Assembly (NCBI GenBank): GCA_963783375.1
Contig: CAWANH010000029.1
Coordinates: 1,312,001-1,376,000, forward strand
Reading direction: 5' to 3'
DNA length: 64,000 nucleotides
DNA from: Candidatus Eiseniibacteriota bacterium
Lineage (GTDB): Bacteria > Eisenbacteria > RBG-16-71-46 > JABDJR01
The notes beneath the pieces are model-generated. The model saw only the letters and a program-made list of their open reading frames with translations. It ran no database searches and was not told the DNA's origin. Below, piece after piece: positions 17,381 through 38,598 of the stretch. Made by a program: the position numbers and the translations under genes. Position 1 is the stretch's first letter. The number at the start of each line of letters is the position of its first letter.

Positions 17381-18307
17381 ATGGCCGAAACCGTCACCAC
17401 CTCCCCCGCCCGGTCCCGCCTGGGGCTGTACTGGGAACTCGCCCGCCCCTTCACCCTCCTCGCTCCCGCCCTCGGGATGCTCTCGGGAGGCATCGCCGGC
17501 GTCGGGGCGCGCCCGCCCCTTCCCCTCGGGCCGACCCTGTTCCTGAACCTGGCTCTCGGCACCCTCATGGCCGCGTCCCTGAACGCCGCCTCGAACACCC
17601 TGAACCAGATCTACGATCTCGAGGTGGATCGGGTCAACAAGCCGCGCCGTCCCCTGCCCAGCGGGCGGGTCTCGATCGCCGAGACGGGGGCGCTGACCCT
17701 GGTCCTCTTCATCTTCGCCCTCCTCCTGGCCTGGCTGGTGGACATCCAGTGCTTCATCCTCGCGTCGGCGGCCGCGATCCTCACCACCGCCTACTCCGTC
17801 CCCCCCCTGCGCACCAAGGCCCGGGGCGTCTGGGCCAACGTCACCATCGCCATCCCCCGGGGACTCCTCCTCAAGGTGGCCGGCTGGTCGTGCGTGCGCA
17901 CGGTGATCGCGCCGGAGCCGTGGTTCATCGGGATGATCTTCGGGCTCTTCCTCCTCGGGGCCAGCTCCACCAAGGACTTCGCCGACATCGCGGGCGACCG
18001 GGCGGGAGGGTGCCGGACCCTGCCCATCATCTACGGGGTCCGCCGCGCGGCCTGGATGATCGCCCCCTTCTTCGTCCTTCCCTTCCTCCTGATGCCGCTG
18101 GGCTCGATCCTTGGGATTCTCACCGGCAACCGGGCCGCCCTGACGTTTCTGGGCATCGGTCTCGCGGCGTGGGGAAGCTACGTGGTCTACCTGATCCTCC
18201 GCGACCCCGACGCGCTGGCCACCACCGAGAACCACCCGTCGTGGACCCACATGTACCTGATGATGCTCGCCGCCCAGATCGGGTTCGCGGTGGCCTACAT
18301 CCTGTGA
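17381..18307 (+). CDS. UbiA family prenyltransferase (DGGGP/chlorophyll-synthase-like motif)
   Basis: NQIYDLEVDRVNKPRRPLPSG and KDFADIAGDRAGGCRTLP motifs; multiple TM helices. Confidence 0.88.
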   Translation: MAETVTTSPARSRLGLYWELARPFTLLAPALGMLSGGIAGVGARPPLPLGPTLFLNLALGTLMAASLNAASNTLNQIYDLEVDRVNKPRRPLPSGRVSIAETGALTLVLFIFALLLAWLVDIQCFILASAAAILTTAYSVPPLRTKARGVWANVTIAIPRGLLLKVAGWSCVRTVIAPEPWFIGMIFGLFLLGASSTKDFADIAGDRAGGCRTLPIIYGVRRAAWMIAPFFVLPFLLMPLGSILGILTGNRAALTFLGIGLAAWGSYVVYLILRDPDALATTENHPSWTHMYLMMLAAQIGFAVAYIL

Positions 18308-20857: not shown

Positions 20858-21107
20858 GTGATGGAACCTCCCTATGGCCAGAAAGGGGCGACCCGACGGT
20901 CGCCCCCAAAGCACCGAAAAACCCCTGGAAGTGTACCCTACCGGGAACGGTACCCTCAAGGTACGCCTCCCCGGGGGACCCATTCCACTACCGGGGGGGA
21001 GCTTGCTTGATTCCGGCCTCATCCGGCTGGTATCCTCTTCTGCCTTCGATGACAGGGACGGTACGGAACCGTGTCCGGGAGCCTCACACTCTGAGAGAGC
21101 CGATCCG

Positions 21108-24100
21108 TTGAATCCTAAGCCTTCCCCGGAGCAACGCGGCGCGCGTGCCGGACTGAGCCCGCTCGAGTCGGCCGTCCTCGCCCTCTTCTTCCTATCCGGC
21201 GCCAGCGCACTGGTCTACGAGGTGGTGTGGACGCGGGAGTTCACCACCGTCTTCGGCGGCTCCGCGTTCGCCATCGCCACCGTCCTCGCGGCATACATGG
21301 CCGGACTCGCCCTGGGGAGCACGGTCTTCGGCCGGTCCATCGACCGTCGCGGCCACCCTCTGCTGGTGTACGGGCTGCTCGAGGCCGCGGTGGGGGTCTG
21401 GGCGCTCCTGCTGCCCGCCATCCTCCACTTCCTGGACGGGGTGTACGGGGGGATCTACCGCGCGATGGAGCCGGGACCCTACGCCCTGGCCCTGATCCGC
21501 TTCGTGCTGAGCTTCGCCGTGCTCCTCGTCCCCACCACCATGATGGGCGGCACCCTTCCCGTCCTCGGGAAGCTCCTCTTCCGGAACTGGAAGGGGCTGG
21601 GGACCCGGGCCGGGCTCCTCTACGGGTCCAATACCCTGGGGGCGGTCCTGGGGACGGTGGTCGGCGGCTTCTTCCTCCTCCCCGGCATCGGCCTGAACGG
21701 CTCCACCTACGTGGCCGCGGTATTCAACGGGGTGGTGGCGGTGGCGGCGGTCCTTCTGGCCCGCGCCTTCCCTTTCCGGTCCGCTCCCCCGTCCCCCGAG
21801 GCCGCAGCGCCCGCCCCCCGGGCCTCCGCCCTACCGGCGGATCCCTCCGGCGCCGGCCTCCGGCGCACCGTGCTCTGGGTCTACGCGGCCAGTGGATTCG
21901 CCGCCCTGGCCTACGAGGTGGCCTGGACCAAGACCCTCTCCATGGTCCTGGGGACCACGAACTACGCGTTCACCTCCATGCTGGCTACCTTCCTCCTCGG
22001 CCTCTCCCTGGGGAGCCTCCTGTTCGCGCGGCTGGCCGACCGCTACGGTCGGCCCGAATCCCTGCTGGCCCTGGTCCAGGCGGGGATCCCGCTGTTCGCG
22101 CTCTTCACCATCCCGATCATGGGGCACATGCCCCAGTGGTTCGTGGACGCCTTCCCGCACCTCAATGGCTCGTGGTTCAAGATCGAGACCTTCCGGGTGC
22201 TCCTGGCCGGTTCGGCCATGTTCATCCCCACCGTGCTCATGGGGGGAACGTTCCCGCTGGTCACCCGCGCCTACGTGAACCGCTCCCAAACCGGGCGGAG
22301 CCTGGGCGCCCTCTACGCCGCCAACACCCTGGGAGCCATCGGCGGCTCCTTCCTGACCGGCTTCGTGCTGGTGCCCTGGCTCGGCCGGCAGAACTCCATC
22401 CTCGCCGCATCCCTGGTGAACGTGGCCGCCGCGATCCTGCTCCTCGCCGTCCTCGGCCGGCGGCGGGTGCCGGGAGCGATCCGGTGGGGCCTGGCGGTGG
22501 TGGTGCTGGGCATGGTGCCCGCGACCATCCTGGGCTTCCAGCGCTGGAACCCGCTGGTGATGGCCTCGGGTGCATACCTGTACGCCGGGGAACTGGGCAA
22601 GTATCCATCGATCGAGGAGAGCGCGGCCGGGGCGGACATCCTGCTCTACGACGAGGCCACCGAGGCCACGGTCTCGGTCTGGCAGACCGAGCAGGTCACC
22701 TCGCTCCGGACCAACGGCAAGGTGGAGGCCTCGACCCACGGCGACATGATCACCCAGAAGCTCATCTCCCACCTCCCGGTCTTCTACCACGCCGGAGAGG
22801 TGAAGGACGGGCTCATGATCGGCCTGGCCAGCGGGATCTCCGTCGGTTCGCTCCTCACCCACCCCTTCGAGCGGGTCGAGACCGTCGAGCTCATCCCCAG
22901 CATGGTGGACGTCGCGGGCTGGTTCGAGGACTTCAACCGCCGGTGCCTGGACGATCCACGTCACAAGCTCATCATCAACGACGGCCGGAACTACCTCCTC
23001 CTCACCCGGGAGAAGTACGACGTCATCGTGAGCGAGCCCTCCAACCCCTGGATCGCCGGGGTGAGCGCGCTGTTCACCCGCCAGTTCTTCGAACTGACCA
23101 AGCAGCACCTGAAACCGGGGGGAGTGGTCTGCCAGTGGGTGCAGATCTACCAGTACACCGAGGCCGATCTCAAGACCATGCTGGCGACGTTCATCGACGC
23201 CTACCCCTACGTTCACCTGTGGCGGGCCGCGCCGGGGGACCTCATCCTGGTGGGGAGCCTGAGCCCGCTCCACTTCCACCTGGACCAGGCCGAGGCCTCG
23301 TTGAACGGCCCGGTGGGCGACGACCTGCGCCAGATCGAGGTTCTCCCCCTCTCCCAGCTCCTGGCCTACTACCTCACCGACCGGGACGGGATCCAGCATT
23401 GGGTGGGCGACTGGCCCAAGCGGGTGACCGACGACAACCTCTACCTGGAGTACGCCGTTCCCCGCCATATGTACGACCTGAGCGGGCAGGTCAACATGAT
23501 GGTCCTCCAGGACGAACTGAAGCCGGTCACCCCGATCCTGGAGCCGGCCCCCACGGACAGCTCGCTGGCCGAATCCATCGACCGGTTCCGGCGCGCCCGG
23601 ATCCTCACCCTCCGGGCCCGGTTCCGGGGCCAGATTCCCCCCGGAACGCGGAACCTGGACGAGGCTCTTGGCCTGGCCATGGAGATCGAGCCGCGGGAAA
23701 TCCTGACCCGAACCCTGCTCTCCCACGACATCAACGAGCGGGGCATCCAGAAACTCCTGAACGGACAGTCCGCTCCGGCGGAGACGTACTTCCTCCGGGC
23801 GGCCAGGATCGGGGATTCCCTGGAGAAGGGGCTGGCCCTGAGCAACATCGGCACGATCAAGTTCCAGGCCGGGGATCTGGACAGCGCCCAGGTGTACTGG
23901 GATGAAGCCCGGGCCACGACGCCGGTGTACCCCACGCTCTCCTTCAACCTGGCGCTTCTGGCCGCTCGCCGGGGAAATTACGCCGAGGCGGTGAAGCAGT
24001 ACGCGGAGGTGGTGCACTGGAGCCCCGGAAACGCCCGGGCTCTGGGCGGTCTGGCCTACAACCGCGCCCTCCTGGGCCGGGATCTCGACCAGGCCCTCGT

Positions 24101-24380
24101 CGAGGCGAAACGAGCGGTGGCCCTGAGCCCGGTGGCGAACAACCTGGATACCCAGGGGTTCGTGCTGATCAAGCTAGAACGCTGGAAAGAGGCGGAGAAG
24201 GTCCTCGAACGCGCCGTGAATCTGGCCCCCGACCAGATGGCGATGCTCCTCCACCTGGGAATGGCGCGGGCCGGATCCGGAGCCGTCGACGGGGCCCGCA
24301 CCGCCTTCCAGGCCGTGGTGGACCGGAGCAAGGATCCGGACCTCGTTCGTGAGGCCCGGGAAGCCCTGGGGAAGCTGTGA
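21108..24380 (+). CDS. Fused MFS-like membrane domain / spermidine synthase-like domain with C-terminal TPRs
   Basis: SGASALVYEVVW, LYGSNTLGA, IGLASGIS, DGRNYL..YDVIVSEPSNPW; TPR tail; start approximate. Confidence 0.88.
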   Translation: MNPKPSPEQRGARAGLSPLESAVLALFFLSGASALVYEVVWTREFTTVFGGSAFAIATVLAAYMAGLALGSTVFGRSIDRRGHPLLVYGLLEAAVGVWALLLPAILHFLDGVYGGIYRAMEPGPYALALIRFVLSFAVLLVPTTMMGGTLPVLGKLLFRNWKGLGTRAGLLYGSNTLGAVLGTVVGGFFLLPGIGLNGSTYVAAVFNGVVAVAAVLLARAFPFRSAPPSPEAAAPAPRASALPADPSGAGLRRTVLWVYAASGFAALAYEVAWTKTLSMVLGTTNYAFTSMLATFLLGLSLGSLLFARLADRYGRPESLLALVQAGIPLFALFTIPIMGHMPQWFVDAFPHLNGSWFKIETFRVLLAGSAMFIPTVLMGGTFPLVTRAYVNRSQTGRSLGALYAANTLGAIGGSFLTGFVLVPWLGRQNSILAASLVNVAAAILLLAVLGRRRVPGAIRWGLAVVVLGMVPATILGFQRWNPLVMASGAYLYAGELGKYPSIEESAAGADILLYDEATEATVSVWQTEQVTSLRTNGKVEASTHGDMITQKLISHLPVFYHAGEVKDGLMIGLASGISVGSLLTHPFERVETVELIPSMVDVAGWFEDFNRRCLDDPRHKLIINDGRNYLLLTREKYDVIVSEPSNPWIAGVSALFTRQFFELTKQHLKPGGVVCQWVQIYQYTEADLKTMLATFIDAYPYVHLWRAAPGDLILVGSLSPLHFHLDQAEASLNGPVGDDLRQIEVLPLSQLLAYYLTDRDGIQHWVGDWPKRVTDDNLYLEYAVPRHMYDLSGQVNMMVLQDELKPVTPILEPAPTDSSLAESIDRFRRARILTLRARFRGQIPPGTRNLDEALGLAMEIEPREILTRTLLSHDINERGIQKLLNGQSAPAETYFLRAARIGDSLEKGLALSNIGTIKFQAGDLDSAQVYWDEARATTPVYPTLSFNLALLAARRGNYAEAVKQYAEVVHWSPGNARALGGLAYNRALLGRDLDQALVEAKRAVALSPVANNLDTQGFVLIKLERWKEAEKVLERAVNLAPDQMAMLLHLGMARAGSGAVDGARTAFQAVVDRSKDPDLVREAREALGKL

Positions 24381-24393
24381 GGGGAGCCTGACC

Positions 24394-26595
24394 ATGAAAC
24401 GAATCATCCCGCTGACCGTCTTCGCGGCCGGCGTCGTCGCCCTGACCGCCGTCTCCGTGCTTTCCGTCGATCGGGGCCCCTTCGAGCGCACCCCGGTGGG
24501 GAGCGAGCAGGGCTATTGGGACGCCGCCCGGCAGGTGGCCTCGAGCGGGGCCGCCCCGGCTCAGCTCAACGTGCACCCCAGCCCGATCTATGTCCGGGCG
24601 CTCGCCGTCCTGGCCTCCGACGACCCTTCGGCCGCCCGCCGAGCCCATCGTATCCTCACCGCCGTCTTCCTCCCCCTGATCGCGCTCGGAGTGCTCGGCC
24701 TGGCCTGGAAACGGAGCGGACCGTGGGCCGCGACTACGGCCGGGATCCTCGCCGCGGCGGCCGGGCCGCTGGTGATGAGCGCGGGGGCCTTCAGCCCCGC
24801 GATCCCCGGGGCCCTCCTGGGGCTCGCCGCCCTCCTGGTCCTGGACGGGAAGCGGACCATGGCCTCCTGGGCGGTGGCCGGACTCCTGGTGGGCCTTGCC
24901 GGACGCATGGACGCGACCCTGGGATGGAGCCTCGGCCTCATTCTCCTGATCCTGGCCCTTTTCGCCTCCGGCCGGGGCGGTCGTTCGCGCCTCCCCGCCG
25001 TCATCCTCTTCCTCGGACTCTGGGCGGGGGGATCGGCCGCCGCGGGAGCGCTGGCCGGAACCTCGGACGTTCTCCCCCCGGTTCGAGGCGTGGACGTCTA
25101 CCGGGGGAACCGCGCCGAGGCCTCGGGGGTCGAGCCGCAACGCGGCGATCACGACGGCAGGGCCTGGTGGGTCCGCCGGGATTTCACCCGCGAGGCCGGG
25201 CGGGCCGAGAACCGTCCGGTCACCGCCGCCCAGACCGACCGGTACTGGGCGGGGCAGGCGCTCCGCGAGGCGTTCACCCATCCGCTCTCGAGCTTGAAGC
25301 GGACCGGGGTCAAGGTGCTGGCCACCTTCACCGGCGAGCCCCTGCCCCGCGAGGTGAGCGCGGCCTTCCTGCGCGACCGCGTGGAGGGGGGGTGGCTCAA
25401 CGTCATCACCTGGGCGGGGCGGATCCTCATCCCCCTGGGCCTGGTGGGGCTGGTCCTCCGCCGGCGGAAGGCGGGCGGGCTTCTGTGGGCGGGAGCCCTG
25501 TCCGGGCTCCTGGCCGCGCTCCTCACCACCGCCGACGCCGACACCCGACAGCTCACGGTCATGACGCTCCTCGCCGGGTTCGCCCTCTTTCTCACCGCGG
25601 TTCTCGATGCCCCGGCGCGGACCCGGATCGCCGCGGTGGCGGGAGGGCTGGCCGCGATCGCGATCTGGGGGATCTGGGCCCCGGCGGGCGCCGTCCCCGG
25701 CCTGGGGATCACCGGTCAGGACGTCTTCCAGCTCGGCTCGGTCTACGACCGGGAGAAGCGGGGCTCGGCGGCGCTCCGGGAATACGAGCGGTCCCTTCGT
25801 CTCGATCCGGCGAACCCGTACCCGCGGTTCGCCCTGGCCGCCATGCTGGTCCGCGACAACGTGAACGAGGAGGCCACCCGGGAGCTGGAGTCCCTGCGCA
25901 CCGACCACCCCGACTTCGTCCCCGGGCTGGCGGCCCTGGCCCGGCTCTACGAGCACAAGCAGGACTGGCGGGGGGCGGCCAACGTCTACGGCGATCTCCT
26001 GAATCTCGATCCGGTGAACGCGGAGTACTGGAACAACCTCGGCACCCTGGACGCGCAGATGGGAATCTACGATCAGGCGGCCATGGCCTTCCAGAGGGCC
26101 CTCCAGCTGAACCCCGCCTATGATGTGGCCCGGAACAACCTGCAGTCCCTCCGGGATCAGGGGCTGGTGGTGACCGCGGGCGGCGCCCCCGCCGACACCA
26201 CGGCGGTGATGGCCCCCGCCGATTCGCTTCGACTCATCCAGGAGCGCGTGTTGGGGCTCATCCAGAACCGGGACTTCGAGGGGGCGGAACAGGTGCTCCA
26301 GGACGCCTACCGGCGGATGGGGCGTCGCCCGGAGCTGGTCTACGCCGACGGGACCCTGAAGCTGGTGTGGGGGAAGTCCGGCGAGGCGGCGGAGCTCTTC
26401 GAGTCCATCTACCCCCGGATGAAGCAGAACCAGTTCTACCTCAACAACCTCGCCGCGGCCTATGCCAACCAGGGCGAGTTGAAGAAGGCGGAGAAGACCT
26501 GGAAGGAGGCGCTGGCGCTGCAGCCCTCCAACGTCCGCATCCAGCAGAGCCTGGCCCGGGTCCAGGCCCGGATCGACTCGCTCGGCGCGAAGTGA
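24394..26595 (+). CDS. Membrane GT-C (ArnT/PMT-like) protein with C-terminal TPRs
   Basis: Many TM helices, GVDVYRGN loop, TPR motifs (WNNLG, LNNLAAAY). Confidence 0.7.
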   Translation: MKRIIPLTVFAAGVVALTAVSVLSVDRGPFERTPVGSEQGYWDAARQVASSGAAPAQLNVHPSPIYVRALAVLASDDPSAARRAHRILTAVFLPLIALGVLGLAWKRSGPWAATTAGILAAAAGPLVMSAGAFSPAIPGALLGLAALLVLDGKRTMASWAVAGLLVGLAGRMDATLGWSLGLILLILALFASGRGGRSRLPAVILFLGLWAGGSAAAGALAGTSDVLPPVRGVDVYRGNRAEASGVEPQRGDHDGRAWWVRRDFTREAGRAENRPVTAAQTDRYWAGQALREAFTHPLSSLKRTGVKVLATFTGEPLPREVSAAFLRDRVEGGWLNVITWAGRILIPLGLVGLVLRRRKAGGLLWAGALSGLLAALLTTADADTRQLTVMTLLAGFALFLTAVLDAPARTRIAAVAGGLAAIAIWGIWAPAGAVPGLGITGQDVFQLGSVYDREKRGSAALREYERSLRLDPANPYPRFALAAMLVRDNVNEEATRELESLRTDHPDFVPGLAALARLYEHKQDWRGAANVYGDLLNLDPVNAEYWNNLGTLDAQMGIYDQAAMAFQRALQLNPAYDVARNNLQSLRDQGLVVTAGGAPADTTAVMAPADSLRLIQERVLGLIQNRDFEGAEQVLQDAYRRMGRRPELVYADGTLKLVWGKSGEAAELFESIYPRMKQNQFYLNNLAAAYANQGELKKAEKTWKEALALQPSNVRIQQSLARVQARIDSLGAK

Positions 26596-26614: not shown

Positions 26615-28251
26615 CTACTGGATGTAGGGCAGCGCCCGCAACCGCTCCTTCTGCTCCGGGGTCAGCACCTGGGCCGGCGCCCGGTCGAGAAGGAACCCCG
26701 GCACCGATTTCCTGCTCACCGGGTGCTTGTTCAGGAAGTCGGGCTTCATCACCTCGGTCCACACCCGCCCGTCCATCGCGTCGGGGACCACCTGCCCCAT
26801 GAGGGCCAGGAGGGACGGCGTCACGTCGATGATCTGGGCGTCCTTGAAGTCGCCACCCGCGGCCAGGCGCGCCCGGGCGTCCCCCTCGCGATTCCGGTGC
26901 ACGGCGGGACCGCGCACCGCGATGACTCCCTGGGGGCGATGGTTGGCGGTGAACGAGGTGGTCCAGACGTCCTGGAAGTAGGGGACGTCGGCCTTGACCG
27001 AGTCCGGCACCCCGCGGGTCACGAAGTAGTGCGGGATCTCCTGGAAGACCACGTCCGGGGCCTTCTCCACCACCGGCCCCTTGTAGAGGTCCTCGCGGCG
27101 GAAGATGTTCTCGAAGGGGCAGAGACCGGTCTTGGGGTCGTGGAGATTCATGGCCATCGTCTCGAACTTGTCGATGAACGCCTGACGGTCCGAACTCCCC
27201 TCGAGCCCTCCCTGCAGGATGTAGTGCATGATGCCGTTGGTGATGGTCATCTGGGGGACGGCGTGGGTGCCGAGCCACTCGGGTATGTCGGTGTCCTCGA
27301 CCCAGTTCGACAGGTTGAGCTGGCGATAGATGGGCCCGAATCCGTGGTCGGACATCACCAGCACGGTGGCGTCGGGGGGGAGCGCGGCCACCAGATCCCC
27401 GAACATCACGTCCAACCGCTCCCAGACGTCCTGGATGGCGTTCCCGAACTCCTTCGCCCCCTCCGCGGTGTGCTCGGGGTGGTTGGGGTCCATGTCCTTC
27501 CAGAAGAAGTGCTGCACCTTGTCCGAGGCGGTGAAGACCATCCAGATGAAGTCGTACTTTCCCGAATCGATCCACTGGCCGGCCACCCTGAACCGGTCTT
27601 CCTGGCGGCCTGAATGCCCTTCAGCATCTCGGCCTGGGTGCGGGTGAACAGGCTCTCCCCCAGATAGTCCAGGAGGTAGGGACCGAGCTGCTTCTGATAC
27701 TCGGGGGGATAGGTGTAGTTCACGTCACCGCTGGGGAAGGGGAACCCGCTGATCATCCTTCCCCGCACCGGGTCGGGAGGGTAGGTCATGGGGACGTTCA
27801 GCACCCCCACCCGGTAGCCGGCGTCCGAGAGGAGCATCCAGATGGGGGTGGCCCGCCGGTTGGTCGCGGTCTCGAGGATCTGCCCGTCCCCGGTCGGATC
27901 CTGCTTCTGAAAGTCGTAGATGCCGTGCTTGCCGGGATTGACCCCGGTGAAGCCCGAGGTCCAGCACACCGGGCTCAGGATGGGGTAGACGGTGGTCAGG
28001 TCCCCCACCGCCGCCTCGTCCATGAACCCCTTCAGATGGGGGAGCTTCCCCTCCTCCATCCAGGGCACCAGGAGATCCCAGGTCGCCCCGTCCATCCCGA
28101 TCACCACCACCGGAGGCTTGGACTTCCCGCACCCCCCCGTCCCCAACGCGAGCCCCGCCGCCGCCACGGCCAGCAGGCTCAGTACCAACCCCGCAAACGC
28201 TCCCCGCCGCCGCCGGGCCGGGGCCGTTCCGCTGCGCGACTCACTGGACAT
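26615..28251 (-). CDS. Alkaline phosphatase superfamily (NPP-type) lipoprotein; one frameshift near 27603
   Basis: VIGMDGATW, SPVCWTSGFTGVNPGKHGIYDF, VMSDHGF, DVTPSLL; continuous homology across two ORFs. Confidence 0.82.
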
Positions 28252-29802
28252 AGGGCACCGCCTTGATCCGTTCCACGGCCTCGGAGCCGGTCTCCTCGGC
28301 CTCGGTCTTGTCCACCTTCACCGGGTGGGCATGGAGATAGTCGGGAAGGAAGAGCCCGGTGAGCACCCGTCCTTCCATGTACCCCGGCACCGTCTCCCCC
28401 TCCAGATACATGAGGGTGGGGGTGATGTCGAGCAGGTTCTGGCGGCCCTCGAGCTTCCCGTTCCCGAACATGGGTCCCGAGGCGATCAGGATCCCGTGCA
28501 CCTCGTGGTGGGCGCTGAAGGAGAAGGCCGGGGTGCCGAACGGGGGCCTTGTCCCCGCTCTCATTGATGAGGTAGTAGCCGGGCCGGGCCAGGAACACCA
28601 GGTCGGGGGCCTTGTCGGTGTAGCGTCCGGTGAAGACGTTCTCCTTGCGATCGCCGAAGATCACCGGGCAGAGCCCGTTCTGGGGGTCGCGGGCGGCGAG
28701 GATCCGGCGAAGCACCTCGTCCACCTCCGCGTCGTGCTGCTCCCGGGTCAGGGTCGCGTTGTACTCCCGCCCGATCTCCGGCACGTAGAGCATGGTGGCG
28801 TTGGTCTCGAGGGCGTAGGCGTCGAGTGATCGGCTTCTCGCCGTCCGGCGGGTGGGCGAGGAAGGACTCGGGGCGGAAGGCCCGGTGGACCCCGCAGAAT
28901 CCGTGGTCGGAGAGCACGATCACCGCCAGCTCCCGCCCCTGCGCGGCGGCCTGGGCCGAGGCCTGATCCACCAGCTCCCCTACCGCCTCATCGATCGCCT
29001 CGTAGACGTGAAGGATGCTGTCTCCGAACCGGGGAGCCAGGGCCGGATCGTAGAAGGGGTGATCCTTCTCCATGAACTTCCAGAAGAAGTGCTGGATCCG
29101 GTCGGTTCCGGTGAAGACCACCCAGTACATGTCGAGGTCGGGGTTCTCCTCCCCCAGTTCCAGGGCCACCTGCTTCCGTTTCCTGAAGGTGCCCACGATC
29201 TCCGATTCCAGATCGGCCTCGTGTCCCGCGATCAGGGCCTCCCCCATCCGGTCCAGGCGATAGCCCTCCCGGTGGAGCCGCGCCTCCAGCTCCGGAGGAT
29301 AGGCGAACCCCACGGAATCGGGATGAGGCAGGCCGGCCACCATGAAGCCGTCCACCGGGTCCGGGGGATCGGTCATCGGCATGTTCAGCATACCAACCTT
29401 GTGGCCGGCTTCGGAGAGGAGCGTCCACACCCCGGGCACCCGCCGGCTTCGCGCGGTCTCGCTGTAGACAATCATGCTGTCGGGGTCGAGGCGGAAGAAG
29501 TCGAAGATCCCATGCATCCCGGGGTTCACCCCGGTGGCGGCGGAGGTCCAGGCCGGGGGGGAGAGCGGGGGGATCACCGAGAGGAGGGGCCCGTAGACCC
29601 CGCCGTCTCGGAGGGCCTTCAGCCGAGGGAGGTGCCCCTGGTCCATGAAGGGTCCCATGAGATCCCAGGTGGCGCCGTCCATTCCGATCACCAGGACCTT
29701 GGGCGGGTTCTGCCCCTTGCCGCACCCACCCAGGAACGCGACCCCCAGGAACGCTATGCAACCGGCGAGGAGGATCGAGGCCCGGGGTCGGAGTCTTCTC
29801 AC
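28241..29802 (-). CDS. Alkaline phosphatase superfamily (NPP-type) lipoprotein; frameshifts near 28825 and 28545
   Basis: LGGC lipobox, VIGMDGATW, SPPAWTSAATGVNPGMHG, LSDHGF, DITPTL; three ORFs join into one paralog of the neighbour. Confidence 0.82.
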
Positions 29803-29808
29803 GTCGGG

Positions 29809-30525
29809 TCAGCGATTGTAGAGGGTCTTGACGCCACCCCAGGTGGACTCTTCGGTGACCCGCTTGAGACAGGGCAGGCTCCCCTTCTCGCTGTCGTCGT
29901 CGGAGAAGCCGACCCAGCCGAGATGGGTCGTCTCGAGGTAGGTGGTCGCGGGCCCGTCACAATCCACGAGCTGTATGTTCTTCCCCGGCCCGTCGACGAT
30001 CTCGAGCCGGTCCGGGCTGTAGGCGGTCACGGTGAAGTACCCGGCCACCGCGGTCACCCCGTCTCCAATCCCCCCCGGCTCGTTCCTCTGGCAGTTGGTG
30101 GTTCTCACCCAGACCATGGTGTTGCCGTGGCCGGCCCCGGCCCGGTTGGGCCAGCCGTCCTGAGGCCACTCGATGTCGGCGCAACTGGTCCACCCGAAGA
30201 TGTCCACGCCGCGGTGGATCTGGTCGTCGTAGCGAAGCCCGCACTGGACCCCGGAGATGCCCGGGCCGGAGTCCGCCTTGAACACACACAGAAATACGAA
30301 ATAACTCAAATTGAGTTCGCCCGTAACCTGGATCTGGTCGTCGTCACAGGCCAGGGGTTCGATCTTCTCGCAGTTGAATCGCGATGTGGCCTCGGAGATG
30401 TAGAAACCCAGGGTGGCGTCCTGTTGGTTGTTGAGTTGCGCCAGGGCGACCCCGGGGAGGGCCCCCGCGGCAATCAGGAGGATCGGGGCGATGCAAAGCA
30501 GGTTGCGAGATCTGGTAGCAATCAT
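29809..30525 (-). CDS. Secreted Cys-rich protein, TWG-tail family (divergent copy)
   Basis: Signal peptide; GISGVQCG, GVDIFGWTSC, VWVRTTNCQR, TAYSPD; ends STWGGVKTLYNR. Confidence 0.8.
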   Translation of the reverse strand: MIATRSRNLLCIAPILLIAAGALPGVALAQLNNQQDATLGFYISEATSRFNCEKIEPLACDDDQIQVTGELNLSYFVFLCVFKADSGPGISGVQCGLRYDDQIHRGVDIFGWTSCADIEWPQDGWPNRAGAGHGNTMVWVRTTNCQRNEPGGIGDGVTAVAGYFTVTAYSPDRLEIVDGPGKNIQLVDCDGPATTYLETTHLGWVGFSDDDSEKGSLPCLKRVTEESTWGGVKTLYNR

Positions 30526-30758
30526 GGCCGAGGCAGACTCCTTGAGCCGAAACGGGAGGTGCTCGAAGCGACCTCCCAACCGGCCCTCTGAGGACACACC
30601 GTGCCCATCGGCACCCGGACCGCGGCGGCGTTCCACAACCCGCGGCCCGTCGGGGGTTTCTACCCCCCCGCCGGCACTTTTCTCCCGAAAGTTCCCTCCC
30701 GGGAATTCCCCCCCGGATCAAGCACCATAAGAGTTTAGCAGAGAAACCCCTCCCCGGC

Positions 30759-30797
30759 CAAAAACGAGACGGCGGCCCCCGCGAGGGGACCGCCGCC
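30759..30797 (-). terminator. Intrinsic terminator
   Basis: CGGCGGTCCCC-TCGC-GGGGGCCGCCG then TCTCGTTTTT. Confidence 0.6.
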
Positions 30798-30863
30798 GAT
30801 CGAACGAATCGTCAATGCTACCGGGGGGATAGCGGTTGTCCGCCTCCCCAACCCCGGCGCCGG

Positions 30864-31628
30864 CTAGTTCTGGTACTGCTTCTTGAGGCTCCCCCAGGTC
30901 GTGCTCTTGGTCGGGGTGTAGGGATCGGTGCAGGGGTTGTACCCACCGCCGGGAATGCCGAAAGCAACCTTCCCCGCCGCAGCCGGATAGGAGAGGTCGG
31001 AAAGAGCCGGTCCCGGACAGTCCACGATCTGGTACTCATCCGGGGTTTCCAGGTTCCGGTTCATGTCCACCGCCATGATGTCCGGGCCGTAGGCGTACAC
31101 GTAGAATACGCACGCCGTGGCGTGAACCTTGTGCGGCGGAATCACATGGCGCTGGCAGTTGGTGGTGCGGACCCAGATCAGCCGGTTGCCGCCGCTGGCG
31201 GACGGGAACTCGGTGGAAGGGTCCACGATGCTGTTGATTCCGTTGGTGTATTCGAGATCCGAGCAGAACGTGTACCCGAACACGTCGACGCCCTCACCGT
31301 CGGTCTGAACGCCGGGAGTATTCCCGTACGTCACGCCGAGGCTGACACCGCTGATTCCCAGCATGGAGTCCGCTTCGGCGACGATCATGAACACGTCGGC
31401 GCCAACGCCCACATCCCACTCATCGACGTAGTCCTGGCAGCCGACGCCCGCAGCCTCGGGAGAATTGTCGCAGTTGATGCCCTTGGTGTTGTGGGCCTGG
31501 ACATGCATGGTGACCACCGAGTTTTCCTGGCCGTTGGTGATTTGGGCCAGGACCTGCGCGCTCCCCATCATTGCGAACATGGCCGCGAGAACCGCGACGA
31601 ACCCGGCCTGTCTTATCAGCAGTTTCAT
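30864..31628 (-). CDS. Secreted Cys-rich protein, TWG-tail family
   Basis: ATG 31628 with purine-rich RBS; signal peptide; HNTKGINC..CSDLEYTN..GGNRLIWVRTTNCQ; ends TTWGSLKKQYQN. Confidence 0.85.
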   Translation of the reverse strand: MKLLIRQAGFVAVLAAMFAMMGSAQVLAQITNGQENSVVTMHVQAHNTKGINCDNSPEAAGVGCQDYVDEWDVGVGADVFMIVAEADSMLGISGVSLGVTYGNTPGVQTDGEGVDVFGYTFCSDLEYTNGINSIVDPSTEFPSASGGNRLIWVRTTNCQRHVIPPHKVHATACVFYVYAYGPDIMAVDMNRNLETPDEYQIVDCPGPALSDLSYPAAAGKVAFGIPGGGYNPCTDPYTPTKSTTWGSLKKQYQN

Positions 31629-31925
31629 GGTAGGACCCCCTTCTCCGAACATCCGTTGCGAGGGAGCGACTTCATTCGGGCTTTGTCTTGTAACCACCCA
31701 GCGGTGCCGCCCCTCCCGATGACACGCGCTTGGCTTCAGGATAGCAGAGACTTTGCCAGACGGCTCGGCCAAACGACAAGCCCAAAAAAGACCGCGGTTT
31801 GGCTGCCGGAGGAGGTCTCGCCTCCGCCGGGCGCCCGCCGGGCGAGGGGGGTCGCCGGTCCCCCTTGGAACGTTCAGGACCGGCGGAGATGCGGGCCCGG
31901 GGGGGCTTCCCGGATTCGTGAGCAG

Positions 31926-32122
31926 TCTGGTAGACGTCGGCGCCCGTGTGCAGCGGCCAGGTCGGTGGTGAACTCGCTGCAAGGGAGATGGGGTCCAGCC
32001 CGCCGCAGCTGATCCCCATGGTGTCGTGCACCGGGACGTGGAGGGCGAGCACCGCCCCGGTCTGCCCGGTCTGGGCCCATCCTTGCGTCCAGGCCGGCAG
32101 GGTCGGCGGCCGCCGTTTTCAT
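31926..32122 (-). pseudogene. Truncated, frameshifted relic of the TWG-family domain
   Basis: RBS+ATG at 32122; frame-corrected translation AQTGQTGAVLALHVPVHDTMGISCGGLDPxLPCSEFTTxWPLHTGADVY matches the N-terminus of the 34769 protein, then homology stops. Confidence 0.7.
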
Positions 32123-32186
32123 GGCGGAACTCCCCCTTTGAGAATCGAACGCCCGGCGCGAGCACCGGGCGTCCGATCGGATCGGA

Positions 32187-34769
32187 TCAGTGATACTGAT
32201 TCTTGAGCCTTCCCCAGGTCGTCTTGACGGTGGGGGTGACCACGCTGGTGCAGGGGTTGAATCCGCTAGTGGCGCCGAAGGCGACGAACCCGGCGTGCCC
32301 CGGGTACGCCATGTCGGAGAGCGCCGGCCCCGGGCAGTCCACGATCTGGAATTCGTCCGGAGTGTGCAAGTTCCGGTTCATGTCCACCCGGAACACGTCC
32401 GGGCCGTAGGCGTACACGTAGAACGCGCACACCGTCACGTGCACCCCGTAGGGGGGTAGCTCGTGCCGCTGGCAGTTGTCGGTCCGCACCCAGATCAGCC
32501 GGTTTCCCCCGCCCGCAGCCGGGAAATCGGTGCTGGAATCCCCGCTGTTCACGCCGTTGGTGTACTCGAGGTCCGAACAGGACACATACCCGAACACGTC
32601 GCAGGCTTGTCCGTCGGTCTGGACACCGGCGGTGTTCCCGTATTGCACCCCCAGGCTCACCCCGCTCACCCCGAAGACCGGGTCTGCCTGGGCAATCACG
32701 AAATACACGTCGGCTGGGGATTGGATCGGCCACCCCGTGGTGAACTGGTCGCACCGCAGGTTCGGGTCCAGGGCCGCGCAGTCCAGACCCTTCAGGTTGT
32801 GGGCCCGGACATGAACGGTCACCACCGCCCGGCTCTGATCCCCCATTCCCCCCCCGGAAGTCCCGGTGGTGAAGCTCACGGTCGAATTCGGAGCGATCGC
32901 GTTCCCCGACGCGTCCTGAACGTTCGAAACCTCCACCGTGTAGGAGGTGCTGGCACCCAGGACCGTGGTCAGGGACAACGTCACCTGGGACCCGACCGCC
33001 GTCGCCGAGTTGATGGTGAGGGTCCCCGCGGGATTGGCGGTCGGGTAGACGGCGTAGTTCGGCACCGCGGTCGCGCCCAGGGCCACCGGCTCGCTGAACC
33101 ACACCACCACGGCGTTGGCGCCGGTCGCCCCGGCGGCGTTGGTGAGGGTCGGCGGGGTGGTGTCCACGGTCCCGGTGGTGAAGCCGGCGGTCGAACCCGG
33201 AGCGATGGCGTTACCCGCCAGATCCTGGACGTTCGAGACCTCCACCGTGTAGGCCGTCGACGAGGCCAGGTTCGAGGCCAGGGTGAGGGTCACATTGGAC
33301 AGGGAGGGCGCGGCCGAGTTCACGGTGAGCGGCGACGAAGGATCGGCGGTGGGGTACACGCTGTAGTTGGCGGGGACGTCGGCCCCGGTCCCCACCGTCT
33401 CGCTGAAGCTCAAGCTCACGGTGTTCTGGCCGGAGGTTCCGGTGGCGCTTACCAGCTCGACGGGGGTTGCGTCCCCGGGACCGGTGGTGAAGCTCGCGGT
33501 CGAGTTCGGCGCGACCGGGTTCCCGGCCGGGTCCTCCACGTTCGAGACCTCCACCGTATACGAGGTCGATCCGGCCAGGTTCGGGGACACGGTCAGGGTG
33601 ACGCTATTGTTCAAGGGCGAGGCCAACGTGACGGTCAGGGGCGAGCCGGGATCGCCGCTCGGGTACACGCTGAAGTTGGAAGGCGTGCCGGCCCCGCTGG
33701 ACACGTTTTCACTGAACGCCACGACCACGTGGTCGGTCCCGGCGGCGCCGGAAGCGCTCACCAGGGTGGGGGGCGTGGTGTCCAGATAGCCGGTCACGAA
33801 GCCGATGGTCGAGTTCGGCGCGATCGTGTTCGCGGACAGGTCCTCGACGTTCGAGACCTCCACCGTATACGTGGTGGAACCGGCCAGGTTCTGGACCAGG
33901 GTCAGGGTGACGATGTTGAGGGACACCGCCGCCGAGGTCACGGTCAGGGGGGACGAGGGGTCGCCGGTCGGGTAGACGGCGTAGTTGGATGGGGTGGTGG
34001 CCCCTCCCGACACGGCCTCGCTGAAGGTGATCGAGACCGTCGGAGATCCCGCGGTCCCCGAGGCGCTGATCAGGACCGGCGGGGTCAGGTCCCCCGTTCC
34101 GCCGGAGCCGCAGGGGTTGTACCCCGGCTGGCCGAATCCGACCTTCCCGGCATGGCTGGGATATTCCAGGTCCCAGCCGGCGGGAGTCGGACAGTCGATG
34201 ACCTGGAGCTCGGGCCCGTTCAGCAGATTCTCGTTCCGGGTCACCTCGAACTCGTCGGGACTGTAGGCGTACACGTAGAACACGCAGGCCACCGCGTGCG
34301 CCCCGTCGCTCCCCCGCACCGTCTGCTGGCAGTTGTAGGTGCGGACCCAGATCAGCCGGTTCCCGCCCCCGGAGTACGGCCATTCGTGGGCCACGGTCCC
34401 GTCGGGGCTGTTGGTGTACTCGAGGTCGGAGCAAGCCGTGTAGCCGAAGACGTCACAGCCGATGCCGTCGTTTATGGTGACCGGGTTGGAATACCGGATG
34501 CCGCAGCTCACGCCGCTGATTCCCAGAACCGGGTCGGCCTGTCCCACCACCAGGTAGACATCGGCGCCCGTAGCGAGCGGCCAGGTCGTGGTGAAATCGC
34601 TGCAAGGGAGATTGGGATCCAGCCCGGAGCACACGATCCCCTTGGTGTTGTGGGGCTGGGCGTGGAGGACGACCTTCGCCCCGGTCTGGCCGATCTGGGC
34701 CGAGGCGGGAGCGGAGAGGACAAGGCTCACGAGGGCAAACAACGAGAGGATACCCAGGGTCGGCTTCAA
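32187..34769 (-). CDS. Secreted protein: two TWG-family Cys-rich domains flanking four Ig-like (Big_5/SbsA-type) repeats
   Basis: AAAGGAGG RBS with TTG start; ends KTTWGRLKNQYH. Confidence 0.87.
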   Translation of the reverse strand: MKPTLGILSLFALVSLVLSAPASAQIGQTGAKVVLHAQPHNTKGIVCSGLDPNLPCSDFTTTWPLATGADVYLVVGQADPVLGISGVSCGIRYSNPVTINDGIGCDVFGYTACSDLEYTNSPDGTVAHEWPYSGGGNRLIWVRTYNCQQTVRGSDGAHAVACVFYVYAYSPDEFEVTRNENLLNGPELQVIDCPTPAGWDLEYPSHAGKVGFGQPGYNPCGSGGTGDLTPPVLISASGTAGSPTVSITFSEAVSGGATTPSNYAVYPTGDPSSPLTVTSAAVSLNIVTLTLVQNLAGSTTYTVEVSNVEDLSANTIAPNSTIGFVTGYLDTTPPTLVSASGAAGTDHVVVAFSENVSSGAGTPSNFSVYPSGDPGSPLTVTLASPLNNSVTLTVSPNLAGSTSYTVEVSNVEDPAGNPVAPNSTASFTTGPGDATPVELVSATGTSGQNTVSLSFSETVGTGADVPANYSVYPTADPSSPLTVNSAAPSLSNVTLTLASNLASSTAYTVEVSNVQDLAGNAIAPGSTAGFTTGTVDTTPPTLTNAAGATGANAVVVWFSEPVALGATAVPNYAVYPTANPAGTLTINSATAVGSQVTLSLTTVLGASTSYTVEVSNVQDASGNAIAPNSTVSFTTGTSGGGMGDQSRAVVTVHVRAHNLKGLDCAALDPNLRCDQFTTGWPIQSPADVYFVIAQADPVFGVSGVSLGVQYGNTAGVQTDGQACDVFGYVSCSDLEYTNGVNSGDSSTDFPAAGGGNRLIWVRTDNCQRHELPPYGVHVTVCAFYVYAYGPDVFRVDMNRNLHTPDEFQIVDCPGPALSDMAYPGHAGFVAFGATSGFNPCTSVVTPTVKTTWGRLKNQYH
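32860..34091 (-). repeat. Four intragenic 309-nt (103 aa) Ig-like repeats
   Basis: D.TP..L..A.G..G...V...FSE.V..YTVEVSNV.D..(G/A)N...P.ST..F.TG units start near 34091, 33782, 33473, 33164. Confidence 0.9.
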
Positions 34770-35283
34770 GGTCAGCCTCCTTTCCGGTGAATCGATCACG
34801 GTGGGGGGCCAGGATCGACCTTGCTCCATCTTTTTAGCCCTTTGCCCGAGGATTCACAAGCTTCGAATTGCCCGAAGGGCACGGCGGCTCGATTGTGGCC
34901 GGTGGCTGCGCCGCCGCACCGGAGCCTTGGAGATCATTGGGCGGGAGGGCCCGCGTCGGGGGACGGCGCAACGGGTCCCGGGCGACGGCACAGCGAGTCC
35001 CGGGGGACGGCGCGGTCGGCGTCGGCGGACGGGGTGACCGGCGCCGGTTCCCAGCTGGACGCCCCATGGGGGGACCTGCAACCCGGGAATCGCCCGGGCC
35101 AAGGGCTTGAATCGCGTCCCCCCACTTCAAATATATTAGACGATGTACAAGCCGTCGGTTACGAAAAAAACGGCGTGGGGAGCCCCGGTTCGGCCCGCGA
35201 ACGGTGGGCGGCGCCGACGTCGAAGGCGACCGGATTTGTCCTCTTGCACGGGCGGTTTCAGGTGCGGGCCGTTCGGTCCCGCC

Positions 35284-35466
35284 GTGCTTCCCCGGGGAAG
35301 CAATGTTCGCAATAAAGCTCCGGTCGCGATCCCCGGCCGATAACCCCCGCGTGCTTCCCCGGGTACACAATGTTCGCAATAAGGCTCTGGCCGTGCTTCC
35401 CCGGGTACACAATGTTCGCAATAAGGCTCTGGCGGTGCTTCCCCGGGGAAGCAATGTTCGCAATAA
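35284..35466. repeat. Four copies of a 32-bp direct repeat
   Basis: GTGCTTCCCCGGG(G/T)A(A/C)(G/A)CAATGTTCGCAATAA at 35284, 35351, 35393, 35435. Confidence 0.95.
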
Positions 35467-35494
35467 CGTGTTTATCGCGACGCGGCCTTTGAGA

Positions 35495-36290
35495 CGGTCC
35501 GCGTGCGGGTGGCTGGTCCGGAGCCCGGAGCGCGACCGCGCGGGGCGGCCTGCCCCGGAGCGAGGCGCGAATCGGATACCGCGGTGGGCGCCTCCGACGA
35601 GCCGGCGGCGAGACGGAGGCGGGGTCCCACCGCGGGGGCCGAGCGAGCGAGGAAACGTCCGGGGGACGTTTCGAGCGAGCGCTGAGCGCCGAGACGAGGG
35701 GGCACCGGCCCGAAGGCCGCGTGCCGGCCGGCCGCGCCTCGGGCACGCCCCCTGAATCGGTCCGCGTGCGGGTGGCTGGTCCGGAGCCCGGAGCGCGGCC
35801 GCGCGGGGCGGCCTGCCCCGGAGCGAGGCGCGAATCGGATACCGCGGTGGGCGCCTCCGGCGAGCCGGCGGCGAGACGGAGGCGGGGCCCCGCCGCGGGG
35901 GCCGAGCGAGCGAGGAAACGTCCGGGGGACGTTTCGAGCGAGCGCTGAGCGCCGAGACGAGGGGGCACCGGCCCGAAGGCCGCGTGCCGGAGCCCGCCCG
36001 CCGAGACGGCCCGTGTGCGAGCGGCCGCCCCGGGATACCCGGCCCGAAGGCCGCGTGCCGGGCCCGCCCGCCGAGACGGCCCGTGTGCGAGCGGCCGCCC
36101 CGGGAGACCCGGCCCGAAGGCCGCGCCTCGGGTCCGCCGCACCCGGGACTGCGTTTGGAACCGCGCCAGGTAGCACGCCGGGGGCACCGGCCCGAAGGCC
36201 GCGTGCCGGACCCGGCCCGCGCCTCGAGGTCGCCCCCTGAATCGGTCCGCGTGCGGGTGGCTGGTCGGAGTCCCGGAGCGCGGCCGCGTG
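35495..36290. repeat. Nested GC-rich tandem repeats (263-bp period x2, 70-bp period x2, partial third copy)
   Basis: 35495-35727 nearly identical to 35758-35990; GGCCCGAAGGCC at 35707, 35970, 36041, 36111, 36189. Confidence 0.92.
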
Positions 36291-36332
36291 CCGGCCGCGT
36301 GCCGGGGCCGCCCGCGCCCAACCCCGTCCCCG

Positions 36333-36368
36333 AATAAAGAGAGCGGCGGCTCCGTTGGGAGCCGCCGC
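36333..36368 (-). terminator. Intrinsic terminator
   Basis: GCGGCGGCTCC-CAAC-GGAGCCGCCGC then TCTCTTTATT. Confidence 0.75.
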
Positions 36369-36429
36369 CCTTTCGATCAGATCTTCGGCCTGGACCGAAG
36401 AACCAAACCGTTCGACCGGTGAGGGTCGA

Positions 36430-37176
36430 CTAGTTGTACTGGTTCTTCAGGTGACCCCAGGTGGTGTTCTCGGTCGGGGTCGAGATGTCGGTACAAGGAT
36501 TGTACTCGGCACCGGTGCCGCCGAACGCGAGCACGCCCGCATGGGCCGGCCAGTCCATGTCGGAGAGCGCAGGACCGGGGCAGTCCACGATCTGGAACTC
36601 GTCCGCGGTCACCAGGTTCCGGTTCATGTCGACGATGAAATTGTCCGGGCTGTAGGCATAGCAGTAGAACACGCAGGCCACGGCCTGAACGCCGTAGGGA
36701 GCCACCACGTTCCGCTGGCAGTTGGTGGTCCGGACCCAGATCAGGCGGTTTCCGCCGCCGGACCAAGGGAACTCGTCCACCGCGGTCCCGGACGGGCTGT
36801 TGGTGTACTGAAGGTCCGAGCAGAACGTGTAACCGAACACGTCCACGCCCACACCGTCAGTGATGGTGTCGTACTCGCTGTACAGAACGCCAAGGCTCAC
36901 GCCGCTGACGCCCAGAGCCGAGTCGGCCTCGGCGATCATCATGTACACGTCGGCGCCGGTTCGCAGCGGCCAGGTGTTGACGAACTGGTCGCAGGGCAGA
37001 GCGGTGTCGATCCCGCCGCACTGGATACCCTTGGTGTTGTGGGCCTGGGCGTGGAGCGCGACCATCGCACCCTCTTGGCCGTTGTGGATCTGGGCGAAGG
37101 CGGATCCGGCGAAAACCATGCCGACTACCGCGGCGATAGCGGCTGCTTTCCCCATCGTCATTAGCACGCGCTTCAT
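36430..37176 (-). CDS. Secreted Cys-rich protein, TWG-tail family
   Basis: AAGGAGGT RBS; signal peptide ending AFA; same core motifs; ends NTTWGHLKNQYN. Confidence 0.87.
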   Translation of the reverse strand: MKRVLMTMGKAAAIAAVVGMVFAGSAFAQIHNGQEGAMVALHAQAHNTKGIQCGGIDTALPCDQFVNTWPLRTGADVYMMIAEADSALGVSGVSLGVLYSEYDTITDGVGVDVFGYTFCSDLQYTNSPSGTAVDEFPWSGGGNRLIWVRTTNCQRNVVAPYGVQAVACVFYCYAYSPDNFIVDMNRNLVTADEFQIVDCPGPALSDMDWPAHAGVLAFGGTGAEYNPCTDISTPTENTTWGHLKNQYN

Positions 37177-37429: not shown

Positions 37430-38170
37430 TTACGGGCAGACGCCCATGACGTGGCAGATCAGGCTCTTGGAGTTCTTGATGTAGTCGGCCGCGATGGACG
37501 CGTCCGCACCGGAACCGCCGTCCCCGTAGTCGTGTCCAGTCACGCCGCCGGTGTAGTCGCTGCAGAGATCGACCAGACCGTTCTTGAACTGGGGCGCGTG
37601 GTAGGCGCCGTCGTTCGCCGAAACGGTGCTGACACCAGCCTCGCAGGTGCTCTCTCCGTCGGGGTTGACCTGCGTGTAGGTGCACTTGTGGCCGACGCCG
37701 TTCACCACGTCGGGCGAATTGACCTGGGACTGGCGCAACGGCACGAAGTCGGCATCGATCTGCGTGATGTACAGGGTCCCGTTGGCGGCTGCGTAAGGGG
37801 CGTTCTCGATGCAGGCGCCGCCGGCGATGTTGAAGGTAGCTTCCCCGTTCGCGTCGGCCACCGCCGTGTAGGTCCGGTAGGGCTCGTCCGTGCACTCCAG
37901 GTGAGAGGGTGCGTCCCCAAGCTGGAGGGGATCGGACCAGGCAATGAGCCGGGTGGCGTCGGGCGAGAACGTGATGGTCACCACCGCGCCCTGGACCGGC
38001 CCGAGCTGGCCGTTGACGACGATGACGACGGGAAAGTTGCCGTCCGGGGTGATCGTGATGAAGTCCGGAACGACGCTGAGACTGGCGTCAGGAATGTTGG
38101 CCATGGCCCCGGTGGACACGATGGCGAGGGCCGCCGCCGCGATGAGGCCGGCACGAAGGAAACGAGTCAT
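37430..38170 (-). CDS. Secreted surface protein with Ig-like region and dockerin/EF-hand-like C-terminus
   Basis: GGAGGT RBS; signal peptide ending AMA; ADANGEATF; SPD..V...D and CSDY..G..D repeats. Confidence 0.75.
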   Translation of the reverse strand: MTRFLRAGLIAAAALAIVSTGAMANIPDASLSVVPDFITITPDGNFPVVIVVNGQLGPVQGAVVTITFSPDATRLIAWSDPLQLGDAPSHLECTDEPYRTYTAVADANGEATFNIAGGACIENAPYAAANGTLYITQIDADFVPLRQSQVNSPDVVNGVGHKCTYTQVNPDGESTCEAGVSTVSANDGAYHAPQFKNGLVDLCSDYTGGVTGHDYGDGGSGADASIAADYIKNSKSLICHVMGVCP

Positions 38171-38436: not shown

Positions 38437-38465
38437 AGTGTAGGCGGGGGTTAACGAAATGTCAA
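38437..38465 (-). promoter_or_regulatory. Near-consensus sigma70 promoter
   Basis: TTGACA-17nt-TACACT. Confidence 0.8.
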
Positions 38466-38521: not shown

Positions 38522-38598
38522 TGGTGGGCGAAACAGGGTTCGAACCTGTGACCTCTTGCGTGTAAGGCAAGCGCTCTAACCAGCTGAGCTATTCGCCC
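38522..38598 (-). tRNA. tRNA-Val (TAC)
   Basis: GGGCGAATAGCTCAGCTGGTTAGAGCG-CTTGC-CTTACAC-GCAAG-AGGTCACAGGTTCGAACCCTGTTTCGCCCACCA. Confidence 0.97.

Follow-up and report, generated by a model that had tools for sequence, protein, structure and literature searches.

We describe a gene array on the minus strand at positions 29809-37176 of a 64,000-nucleotide stretch of a Candidatus Eiseniibacteriota genome (assembly GCA_963783375.1, contig CAWANH010000029.1; the whole stretch is hereafter called the window). Its four genes, A to D, carry five intact copies of one cysteine-rich domain of 191-205 amino acids each, which is predicted to have the fold of a cohesin, and the array is headed by a gene, E, with an immunoglobulin (Ig)-like domain and a degenerate dockerin-like tail. 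On the strength of structure models and gene order we tentatively propose, at a little under an even chance, that the array proteins capture the enzyme-free E and thereby form a structural assembly on the cell surface; it is likely that the locus builds a snap-together surface coat rather than an enzyme complex. The genes concerned, in which "TWG tail" denotes a short C-terminal motif discussed below, are as follows.

37430..38170, minus strand: head gene E, 246 amino acids; signal peptide, Ig-like (X-like) domain and degenerate dockerin-like tail
37718..38098, minus strand: N-domain of E; the fold is predicted to be Ig-like, with Z 6-7 to filamin, intimin D0 and SbsC Ig domains, a generic likeness
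37433..37717, minus strand: dockerin-like tail of E; two loop-helix repeats, Asp at loop positions 1 and 12
36430..37176, minus strand: gene D, 248 amino acids; signal peptide, cohesin-like domain 36493-37092, TWG tail 36433-36486
32187..34769, minus strand: gene C, 860 amino acids, TTG start; signal peptide, cohesin-like domains C1 (34110-34697) and C2 (32250-32843)
32868..34094, minus strand: four Big_5 Ig repeats of gene C, between C1 and C2; the TWG tail of C is at 32190-32243
30864..31628, minus strand: gene B, 254 amino acids; signal peptide, cohesin-like domain 30930-31544, TWG tail 30867-30923
29809..30525, minus strand: gene A, 238 amino acids; divergent last copy 29869-30441, TWG tail 29812-29868; adjoins a phosphodiesterase gene

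A preliminary description of this DNA had counted five intact domain copies in four genes plus one relic, and had singled out one bivalent member with four Ig spacers. Both observations were confirmed. TBLASTN comparisons between the copies gave E values of 1e-18 to 1e-90, so their likeness is not due to chance, and the bivalent member is gene C, whose spacers of ~103 amino acids each (309-nt period) match Pfam Big_5 (E 2.4e-37, four stretches). Domains B, C1, C2 and D are mutually 55-65% identical and A shares 37-46% identity with them. The motifs listed in the description are present, except that HNTKG is missing from A and reads HNLKG in C2, and the description overlooked both the C-terminal tail shared by the array genes and the further copies elsewhere in the genome. 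Besides the relic, the genome has 15 copies and a further diverged one, spread over 7 places; 10 of the copies and the diverged one lie at the 6 places outside the array. Two more genes of the C type (domain, Big_5 repeats, domain) occur at L027 (G000:C28:705416-708056) and L028 (G000:C28:1096922-1100335), with 65-70% DNA identity to C, one of the two being split by frameshifts.

The match to a characterised enzyme family that the description had named as evidence against its reading was not found in Pfam, NCBIfam or PDB sequences: the domain has no match in Pfam or NCBIfam, genes A-E fall in no enzyme family of either, and the PDB search returned 0 matches at E<=10. A match of A to Toxin_32 (14.2 bits against a cut-off of 25) was dismissed as chance-level. 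Six cysteines are conserved in 97-100% of 90 aligned members, as are an aromatic ladder (Y143/Y145/Y147, 88-97%), His14 (93%) and two Trp positions. A profile search of protein clusters at 50% identity returned 972 at E<=0.001, falling to 786 at 1e-10 and 296 at 1e-30, of which the weak matches may be tail-driven since the profile contained the signal peptide and tail; a profile of this kind matches 79 of the phylum's 151 genomes, with strong matches in this order alone. Among 22 related loci, 18 are labelled Ca. Eisenbacteria and 4 "uncultured bacterium". Proteins of the family have at most two domain copies in this genome and three in relatives, always with Ig spacers. When 43 long members were scanned with Pfam, none had a catalytic family over the cut-off; the matches were to Ig-like, PKD, Fn3, ASH and BACON domains as spacers and to FlgD_ig/Por_Secre_tail at the ends.

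The assignment of the domain to the cohesin fold comes from structure prediction. The AlphaFold model of mature D, built from 90 aligned sequences (pLDDT 93.5, pTM 0.88), is a nine-stranded jelly-roll beta-sandwich, as in Cohesin (PF00963). When it was submitted to Foldseek the top 12 rows were all cohesins (best E 1.1e-4), and a Foldseek-free search of 48,161 chains gave 18 at Z>=8, namely 17 cohesins and YcnI. The best structural match was 2vo8 (Z 11.0, rmsd 3.0 A, 129 residues aligned). The nearest named cluster in the Atlas has Cohesin on 16% of its members (score 0.86). The suggestion of a cohesin-like beta-sandwich in the preliminary description was therefore borne out, at the level of the predicted fold, by three structure searches of one model.

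Gene E has neither a catalytic domain nor a TWG tail. Its residues 23-155 are predicted to be Ig-like (Z 6-7, generic), and its tail shows Asp residues at what we take to be dockerin loop positions 1 and 12; D131, D164, D182 and D200 are kept in 36, 36, 33 and 36 of 37 E-clade rows, respectively. In this clade a long insertion interrupts loop 1, and loop 2 is diverged. Distant E homologues end in canonical double dockerin loops, and the E-clade tail aligns to these distant tails with P=0.0015. Dockerin_1 was matched by 6 of 28 E homologues (one over the curated cut-off, five below), a paralog scored 17.3 bits against Dockerin (PF00404; cut-off 22.9), and a cluster offered by the Atlas, which we treat as a lead only, has Dockerin_1 on 19% of its members (score 0.89). 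The conservation of the loop Asp residues and the homology to the distant tails together suggest that E is a degenerate X-dockerin-like dyad without cargo. The dockerin-like tail proposed in the preliminary description thus stands as regards homology to relatives with canonical double loops; its own structure model and Pfam do not back it. The E family is present in 92 of 151 genomes. A custom dockerin hidden Markov model (HMM) found only four genes in this genome, all of the enzyme-free Ig-dockerin type, and a genome scan gave no Dockerin_1 match over the cut-off; both are searches in which more divergent dockerins could be missed.

The association of E with the array recurs in relatives. In all six long loci (G037, G027, G007, G003, G006 and G036) mltG, a small open reading frame (ORF), tRNA-Val, E, the array and two phosphodiesterase genes follow one another, and the core locus adjoins mltG and lspA. 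E lies immediately ahead of the array in 8 of the 9 genomes sampled from the order, this genome counted; G086 has E and two domain copies on a 3.3-kb contig, and no E match was obtained in G020 (440 contigs). The loci fetched were places where both families lie close together, and the 22 related loci, which may be from the same genomes, were not added. Array size across the relative loci ranges from 2 to about 11 domains. A tree was built of 44 domains, those with fewer than 130 aligned residues being left out. In it the copies of the last gene, A, from six genomes of the family fall into a single clade (99/97), and the upstream copies group by genome (G027 100/100, G007 100/99, G037 100/96, this genome 90/93, the last not starred). 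Orthology of A across the family combined with grouping of the upstream copies by genome points to a locus with a fixed frame and a turning-over middle. Separate pairings of the E-like module and the domain were found as neighbours at G000:C29:2452-3755 and G006:C44, and at G086:C485 a dockerin tail and, directly after it, the domain are fused in a single frame.

That fused frame (L077:3-4475) encodes at least 1491 amino acids, comprising an X-dockerin, the cohesin-like domain, InlB-type B repeats, a segment with what we take by eye to be a His/Cys clan-CD peptidase-like pattern, and a beta-helix. Genes with a TWG tail that lie next to distant X-dockerin genes (L051, L056, L058, L060) had no significant profile match to the family or to cohesins and so were not counted as pairings. 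At three of these loci, in another family (L056:2173-2997, L058:434-1252 and L060:425-1168), what comes after the X-dockerin gene is a member of a different family, Cys-rich and TWG-tailed, with a strand pattern that looks cohesin-like by eye and no profile match to the array family. At L080 (G007:C14:2780299-2782993) four X-dockerin-like genes stand in tandem, and a cohesin-like gene was not detected within 11 kb of them. A four-domain frame in G027 was set aside as a scaffoldin candidate, its overlapping frames with repeated ends suggesting indels.

Every array gene ends in [ST]-W-G-x-[IVL]-K-x-x-Y, within a tail of about 18 residues whose logo is P-[VT]-P-[VT]-E-x-T-[TS]-W-G-x-[IL]-K-x-x-Y. 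Among six-frame ORFs of the genome the core motif lies at <=20 residues from the stop in 73 cases versus >=40 residues in 15, and after removal of the tail the 73 ORFs fall into 44 unrelated clusters (some rows being duplicates or alternative frames). Among 45,048 C-termini, an HMM of the tail scored >=20 bits on 71, the greater part of them sequences it had been trained on, versus 0 of 19,459 internal controls, and many of the distant X-dockerin proteins carry the tail themselves. Type IX secretion system (T9SS)-type ends appear to replace it: in 172 family proteins, a sample that favours tailed proteins because the queries included the tail and that to this extent weighs against our interpretation, the tail is present in 136 and a T9SS-type end in 24, no protein has the two together, and 12 have neither. 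In the same sample the TWG tail never follows a non-terminal domain copy. FlgD_ig/Por_Secre_tail-type ends mark surface export in Bacteroidota. The array genes in the window lack a T9SS type A C-terminal domain (CTD) and relatives carry FlgD_ig/Por_Secre_tail ends; the genome encodes SprA, six PorV-family proteins over the cut-off and a C25 peptidase, and has 103 FlgD_ig matches. The tail itself is predicted to be a short helix, its logo has no hydrophobic or transmembrane segment, and it does not present the signature motif, transmembrane helix and basic cluster of a tripartite sorting signal, a class defined by its transmembrane helix in the part of bioRxiv 2023.06.07.544157 drawn on here.

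Several further genes of this genome were noted. At 13027-17598 (minus strand), 12 kb from the array, lies a gene for a 1523-amino-acid Peptidase_C25 protein with a FlgD_ig end, PorU/gingipain-like; we found nothing specific linking it to the array. A 1683-amino-acid CTD protein with the same Big_5 spacer module (L106:8218-13269, G000:C3) is encoded beside PorV-family barrel genes. At G000:C28:850233-855575 there are CTD proteins with a second, unrecognised dockerin-looking segment and then a cohesin-looking domain (both by eye), and a small cohesin of the Pfam type, with a TWG-type tail (E 3e-5), stands between them.

Our proposal for how the locus works would run as follows. The N-termini of A-D read as a signal-peptide-like stretch ending in A-x-A and followed by Q, and the proteins would be exported by Sec and cleaved there. 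All four mature chains are predicted to start with Gln, as in the pyroglutamate "Q rule" of Bacteroidota. The six conserved cysteines would then form disulfides. The TWG tail, portable, strictly terminal and exclusive of the T9SS-type domain, may be an address tag, probably read by the T9SS-like machinery of this genome. The dockerin helices of E would bind the cohesin face, probably with calcium, as the fold, the gene order and the one fusion lead us to suppose. As E has no cargo, the product would be a coat or mesh; proteins with two heads, like C, could serve in it as extended cross-bridges, and genome-specific paralogs might vary the surface.

A number of observations weigh against this proposal. 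The main gene order represents one vertically inherited locus and hence does not amount to independent pairings, and at 5 of the 7 genome places with the domain no E-like neighbour was found. The ratio of ~15 cohesin-like copies to 4 dockerin-like genes is the reverse of that in cellulosomes. Hairpins follow D and B, which suggests that the array is apparently not one transcript. On the side of the domain, sequence identity to cohesins is 5-11%, no array protein matched Cohesin (PF00963) at E<=1, and hhalign against 26 Pfam-type cohesin domains of the phylum aligned 19 columns with a probability of 1.3% (score 17.5 versus <=13.7 in 20 shuffles), the aligned part being just the strand noted in the preliminary description; from the low identity and the one-strand alignment we conclude that the domain is cohesin-built but outside PF00963. 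YcnI, which is no dockerin binder, ties several cohesins at Z 9.2. As for E, its tail has no Pfam dockerin match and no canonical 12-residue Ca2+ loops, loop 2 is without the usual inner acidic residues, the match to the dockerin HMM of relatives has an E value of 0.053, and in the model, made from 17 sequences, the tail, for which two helices are predicted (193-197 and 222-233), has pLDDT <50. E has neither a TWG tail nor a CTD that would account for its export past the outer membrane.

These points leave room for other explanations. The cohesin fold might have been reused here, on Ig stalks, for adhesin or ligand-binding modules that work on their own, with paralogs diversifying specificity and E only a conserved neighbour or chaperone. 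Genome-specific expansions, stalk architectures with Big_5, PKD, Fn3 and ASH spacers, fusions of the domain to an NHL propeller and other large proteins, the aromatic ladder and the many copies lacking an E neighbour are all as such modules would have them; we nevertheless place this explanation somewhat on the unlikely side, as cohesins outscore pilin and adhesin folds against the D model (Z 11 versus <=7.0), no carbohydrate-binding module is near the top of any fold search, and the adjacency of E and the domain recurs at further loci and as a fusion. The same pairing could also operate in the periplasm as an envelope scaffold, with the TWG helix holding the proteins on a periplasmic partner or on the outer membrane's inner face instead of at the surface. 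The position of the core locus next to mltG and lspA, the lack of any outer-membrane export tag on E, and a tail that is a short predicted helix with no transmembrane segment agree with this, but at least 24 of the 172 relatives carry the same domain with an FlgD_ig/Por_Secre_tail-type domain at its end, and we regard a periplasmic site as improbable.

A cellulosome-like scaffold, whose domains recruit dockerin-tagged hydrolases, is suggested by the two- and three-domain members, which resemble scaffoldins, by the by-eye peptidase-like segment of the one fusion and by a precedent in Cloacimonadota (in the portion of PMC8542988 considered here). It becomes quite improbable in view of the genome scan without a Dockerin_1 match over the cut-off, the custom HMM that yields only the four enzyme-free genes and the lack of a catalytic Pfam family over the cut-off in the 43 long members. 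Metal binding by YcnI uses a His at the mature N-terminus. A YcnI-like metal (copper) binding family of surface proteins would accord with YcnI at Z 9.2-9.3, the conserved His14 and the two Trp positions, yet the array proteins start with Gln after predicted cleavage and cohesins rank above YcnI, so that we give this explanation hardly any weight.

The remaining features in and around the array are these.

38522..38598, minus strand: tRNA-Val(TAC), constant upstream neighbour in 6/6 relative loci
38437..38465, minus strand: sigma70-like promoter match (10/12) upstream of the head gene; 1 found versus 0.8 expected, a lead only
36340..36371, minus strand: terminator-like hairpin of 14 bp, 3' of D
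35230..36030, no strand: non-coding dispersed repeats within the array, a 263-nt tandem duplication plus 42-nt units
31929..32077 (about), minus strand: relic of a sixth copy, a frameshifted, truncated 5' part nearest to C
30768..30797, minus strand: terminator-like hairpin of 13 bp, 3' of B
26615..29802, minus strand: two PF01663 phosphodiesterase-superfamily genes, constant downstream neighbours, here split by apparent assembly indels

The relic has 82% identity over 150 nt to the start of C. An assembly error was ruled out as its origin by exact matches, with 0 differences and 0 gaps, in short-read contigs of two runs, X1 (31565-32202) and X2 (31727-32105), which belong to one study and possibly to the source sample. 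In relatives both phosphodiesterase genes are single ORFs of ~515-580 amino acids, whereas here each occupies two frames; these splits are likely assembly errors, given the one-base indels that short-read contigs reveal at 27607 and 28827. The repetitive extragenic palindrome (REP)-like dispersed repeats occur at ~20 places in the genome, and short-read contigs show several rearranged joints there. On the plus strand at 20874-26595 lie a gene for a membrane protein with spermidine-synthase-like and tetratricopeptide repeat (TPR) parts and a second membrane and TPR gene; these genes are kept downstream of the locus in several relatives and could modify surface proteins, and by eye the second resembles a GT-C glycosyltransferase, with no such Pfam match. 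When the 3,104 called genes are ranked by how ribosomal-protein-like their codon use is, E, D and B stand at the 97-98th percentile and A and C at ~80, a weak hint only in a genome with little codon bias.

The closest known counterparts of the array domain are non-cellulosomal cohesins, the X82 modules of C. perfringens (2vo8, 2jh2, 2w1n) and the Archaeoglobus fulgidus cohesin (2xdh), to which its model aligned best (Z 9.6-11.0, with 119-130 residues superposed at an rmsd of ~3 A). They share with it the nine-stranded jelly-roll predicted here and a use outside cellulose breakdown, whereas the array domain has ~60-70 extra loop residues, six conserved cysteines, only 5-11% identity to them and no Pfam match, and is found in stand-alone, expanding genes of a diderm host with a TWG tail. 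E resembles the X-dockerin of the type II/III dyads of C. thermocellum CipA with SdbA (2b59/5k39) and of R. flavefaciens ScaE (2zf9) in that an Ig-like module precedes the dockerin-like tail, the known partners being cell-attached cohesins; in type III dockerins, too, the second Ca loop is not canonical or is missing (PMC12484212, in the part used here). Unlike those systems, E is an autonomous putative dyad with no scaffoldin or enzyme attached and no S-layer homology (SLH) or LPXTG anchor. In Ca. Stygibacter (Cloacimonadota), an uncultured diderm, database-recognised cohesins and dockerins have been described, with a scaffold that ends in a T9SS-type CTD and dockerins on glycoside hydrolases and peptidases (PMC8542988, same portion); in our genome, by contrast, no enzyme cargo was found. 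The TWG tail behaves like the T9SS type A CTD (PF18962/FlgD_ig-like), PEP-CTERM and MYXO-CTERM in being strictly C-terminal, present many times per genome and attached to unrelated signal-peptide proteins, and it swaps with the CTD on the same domain, but it is only ~18 residues long and has no Ig fold, transmembrane helix or Arg cluster.

In the open literature, supplements aside, we found no paper on this domain family, locus or tail, and nothing on Krumholzibacteria with dockerins or on Eisenbacteria with type IX secretion or an S-layer; the main texts of PMC11495043 and PMC4454575 contain no cohesin or dockerin passage. Non-cellulosomal cohesins (2vo8, 2xdh) and, from the portion of PMC8542988 cited above, cohesin/dockerin systems in uncultured diderms are already known. 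What is new is an unnamed disulfide-rich cohesin-like family, a cargo-free X-dockerin-like partner, a core locus and an undescribed tag.

The 786 clusters (50% identity, E<=1e-10) of this unannotated family can now be named, and the natural swaps of tail and CTD on one domain are material bearing on the function of the TWG tag. The array also offers small secreted proteins and possibly a new orthogonal, disulfide-stabilised pair for engineering. At its most far-reaching, and we hold this to be doubtful, the outer surface of the order would be a core-genome, enzyme-free cohesin/X-dockerin lattice in which a conserved X-dockerin connector links fast-evolving, disulfide-locked cohesins, delivered by an undescribed T9SS branch with an 18-residue "mini-CTD" and allowing antigenic-style variation. 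Pairs of cohesin and dockerin are known as parts of enzyme assemblies; if our proposal is true, this locus would represent a structural use of such a pair, in a diderm phylum whose envelope is undescribed.

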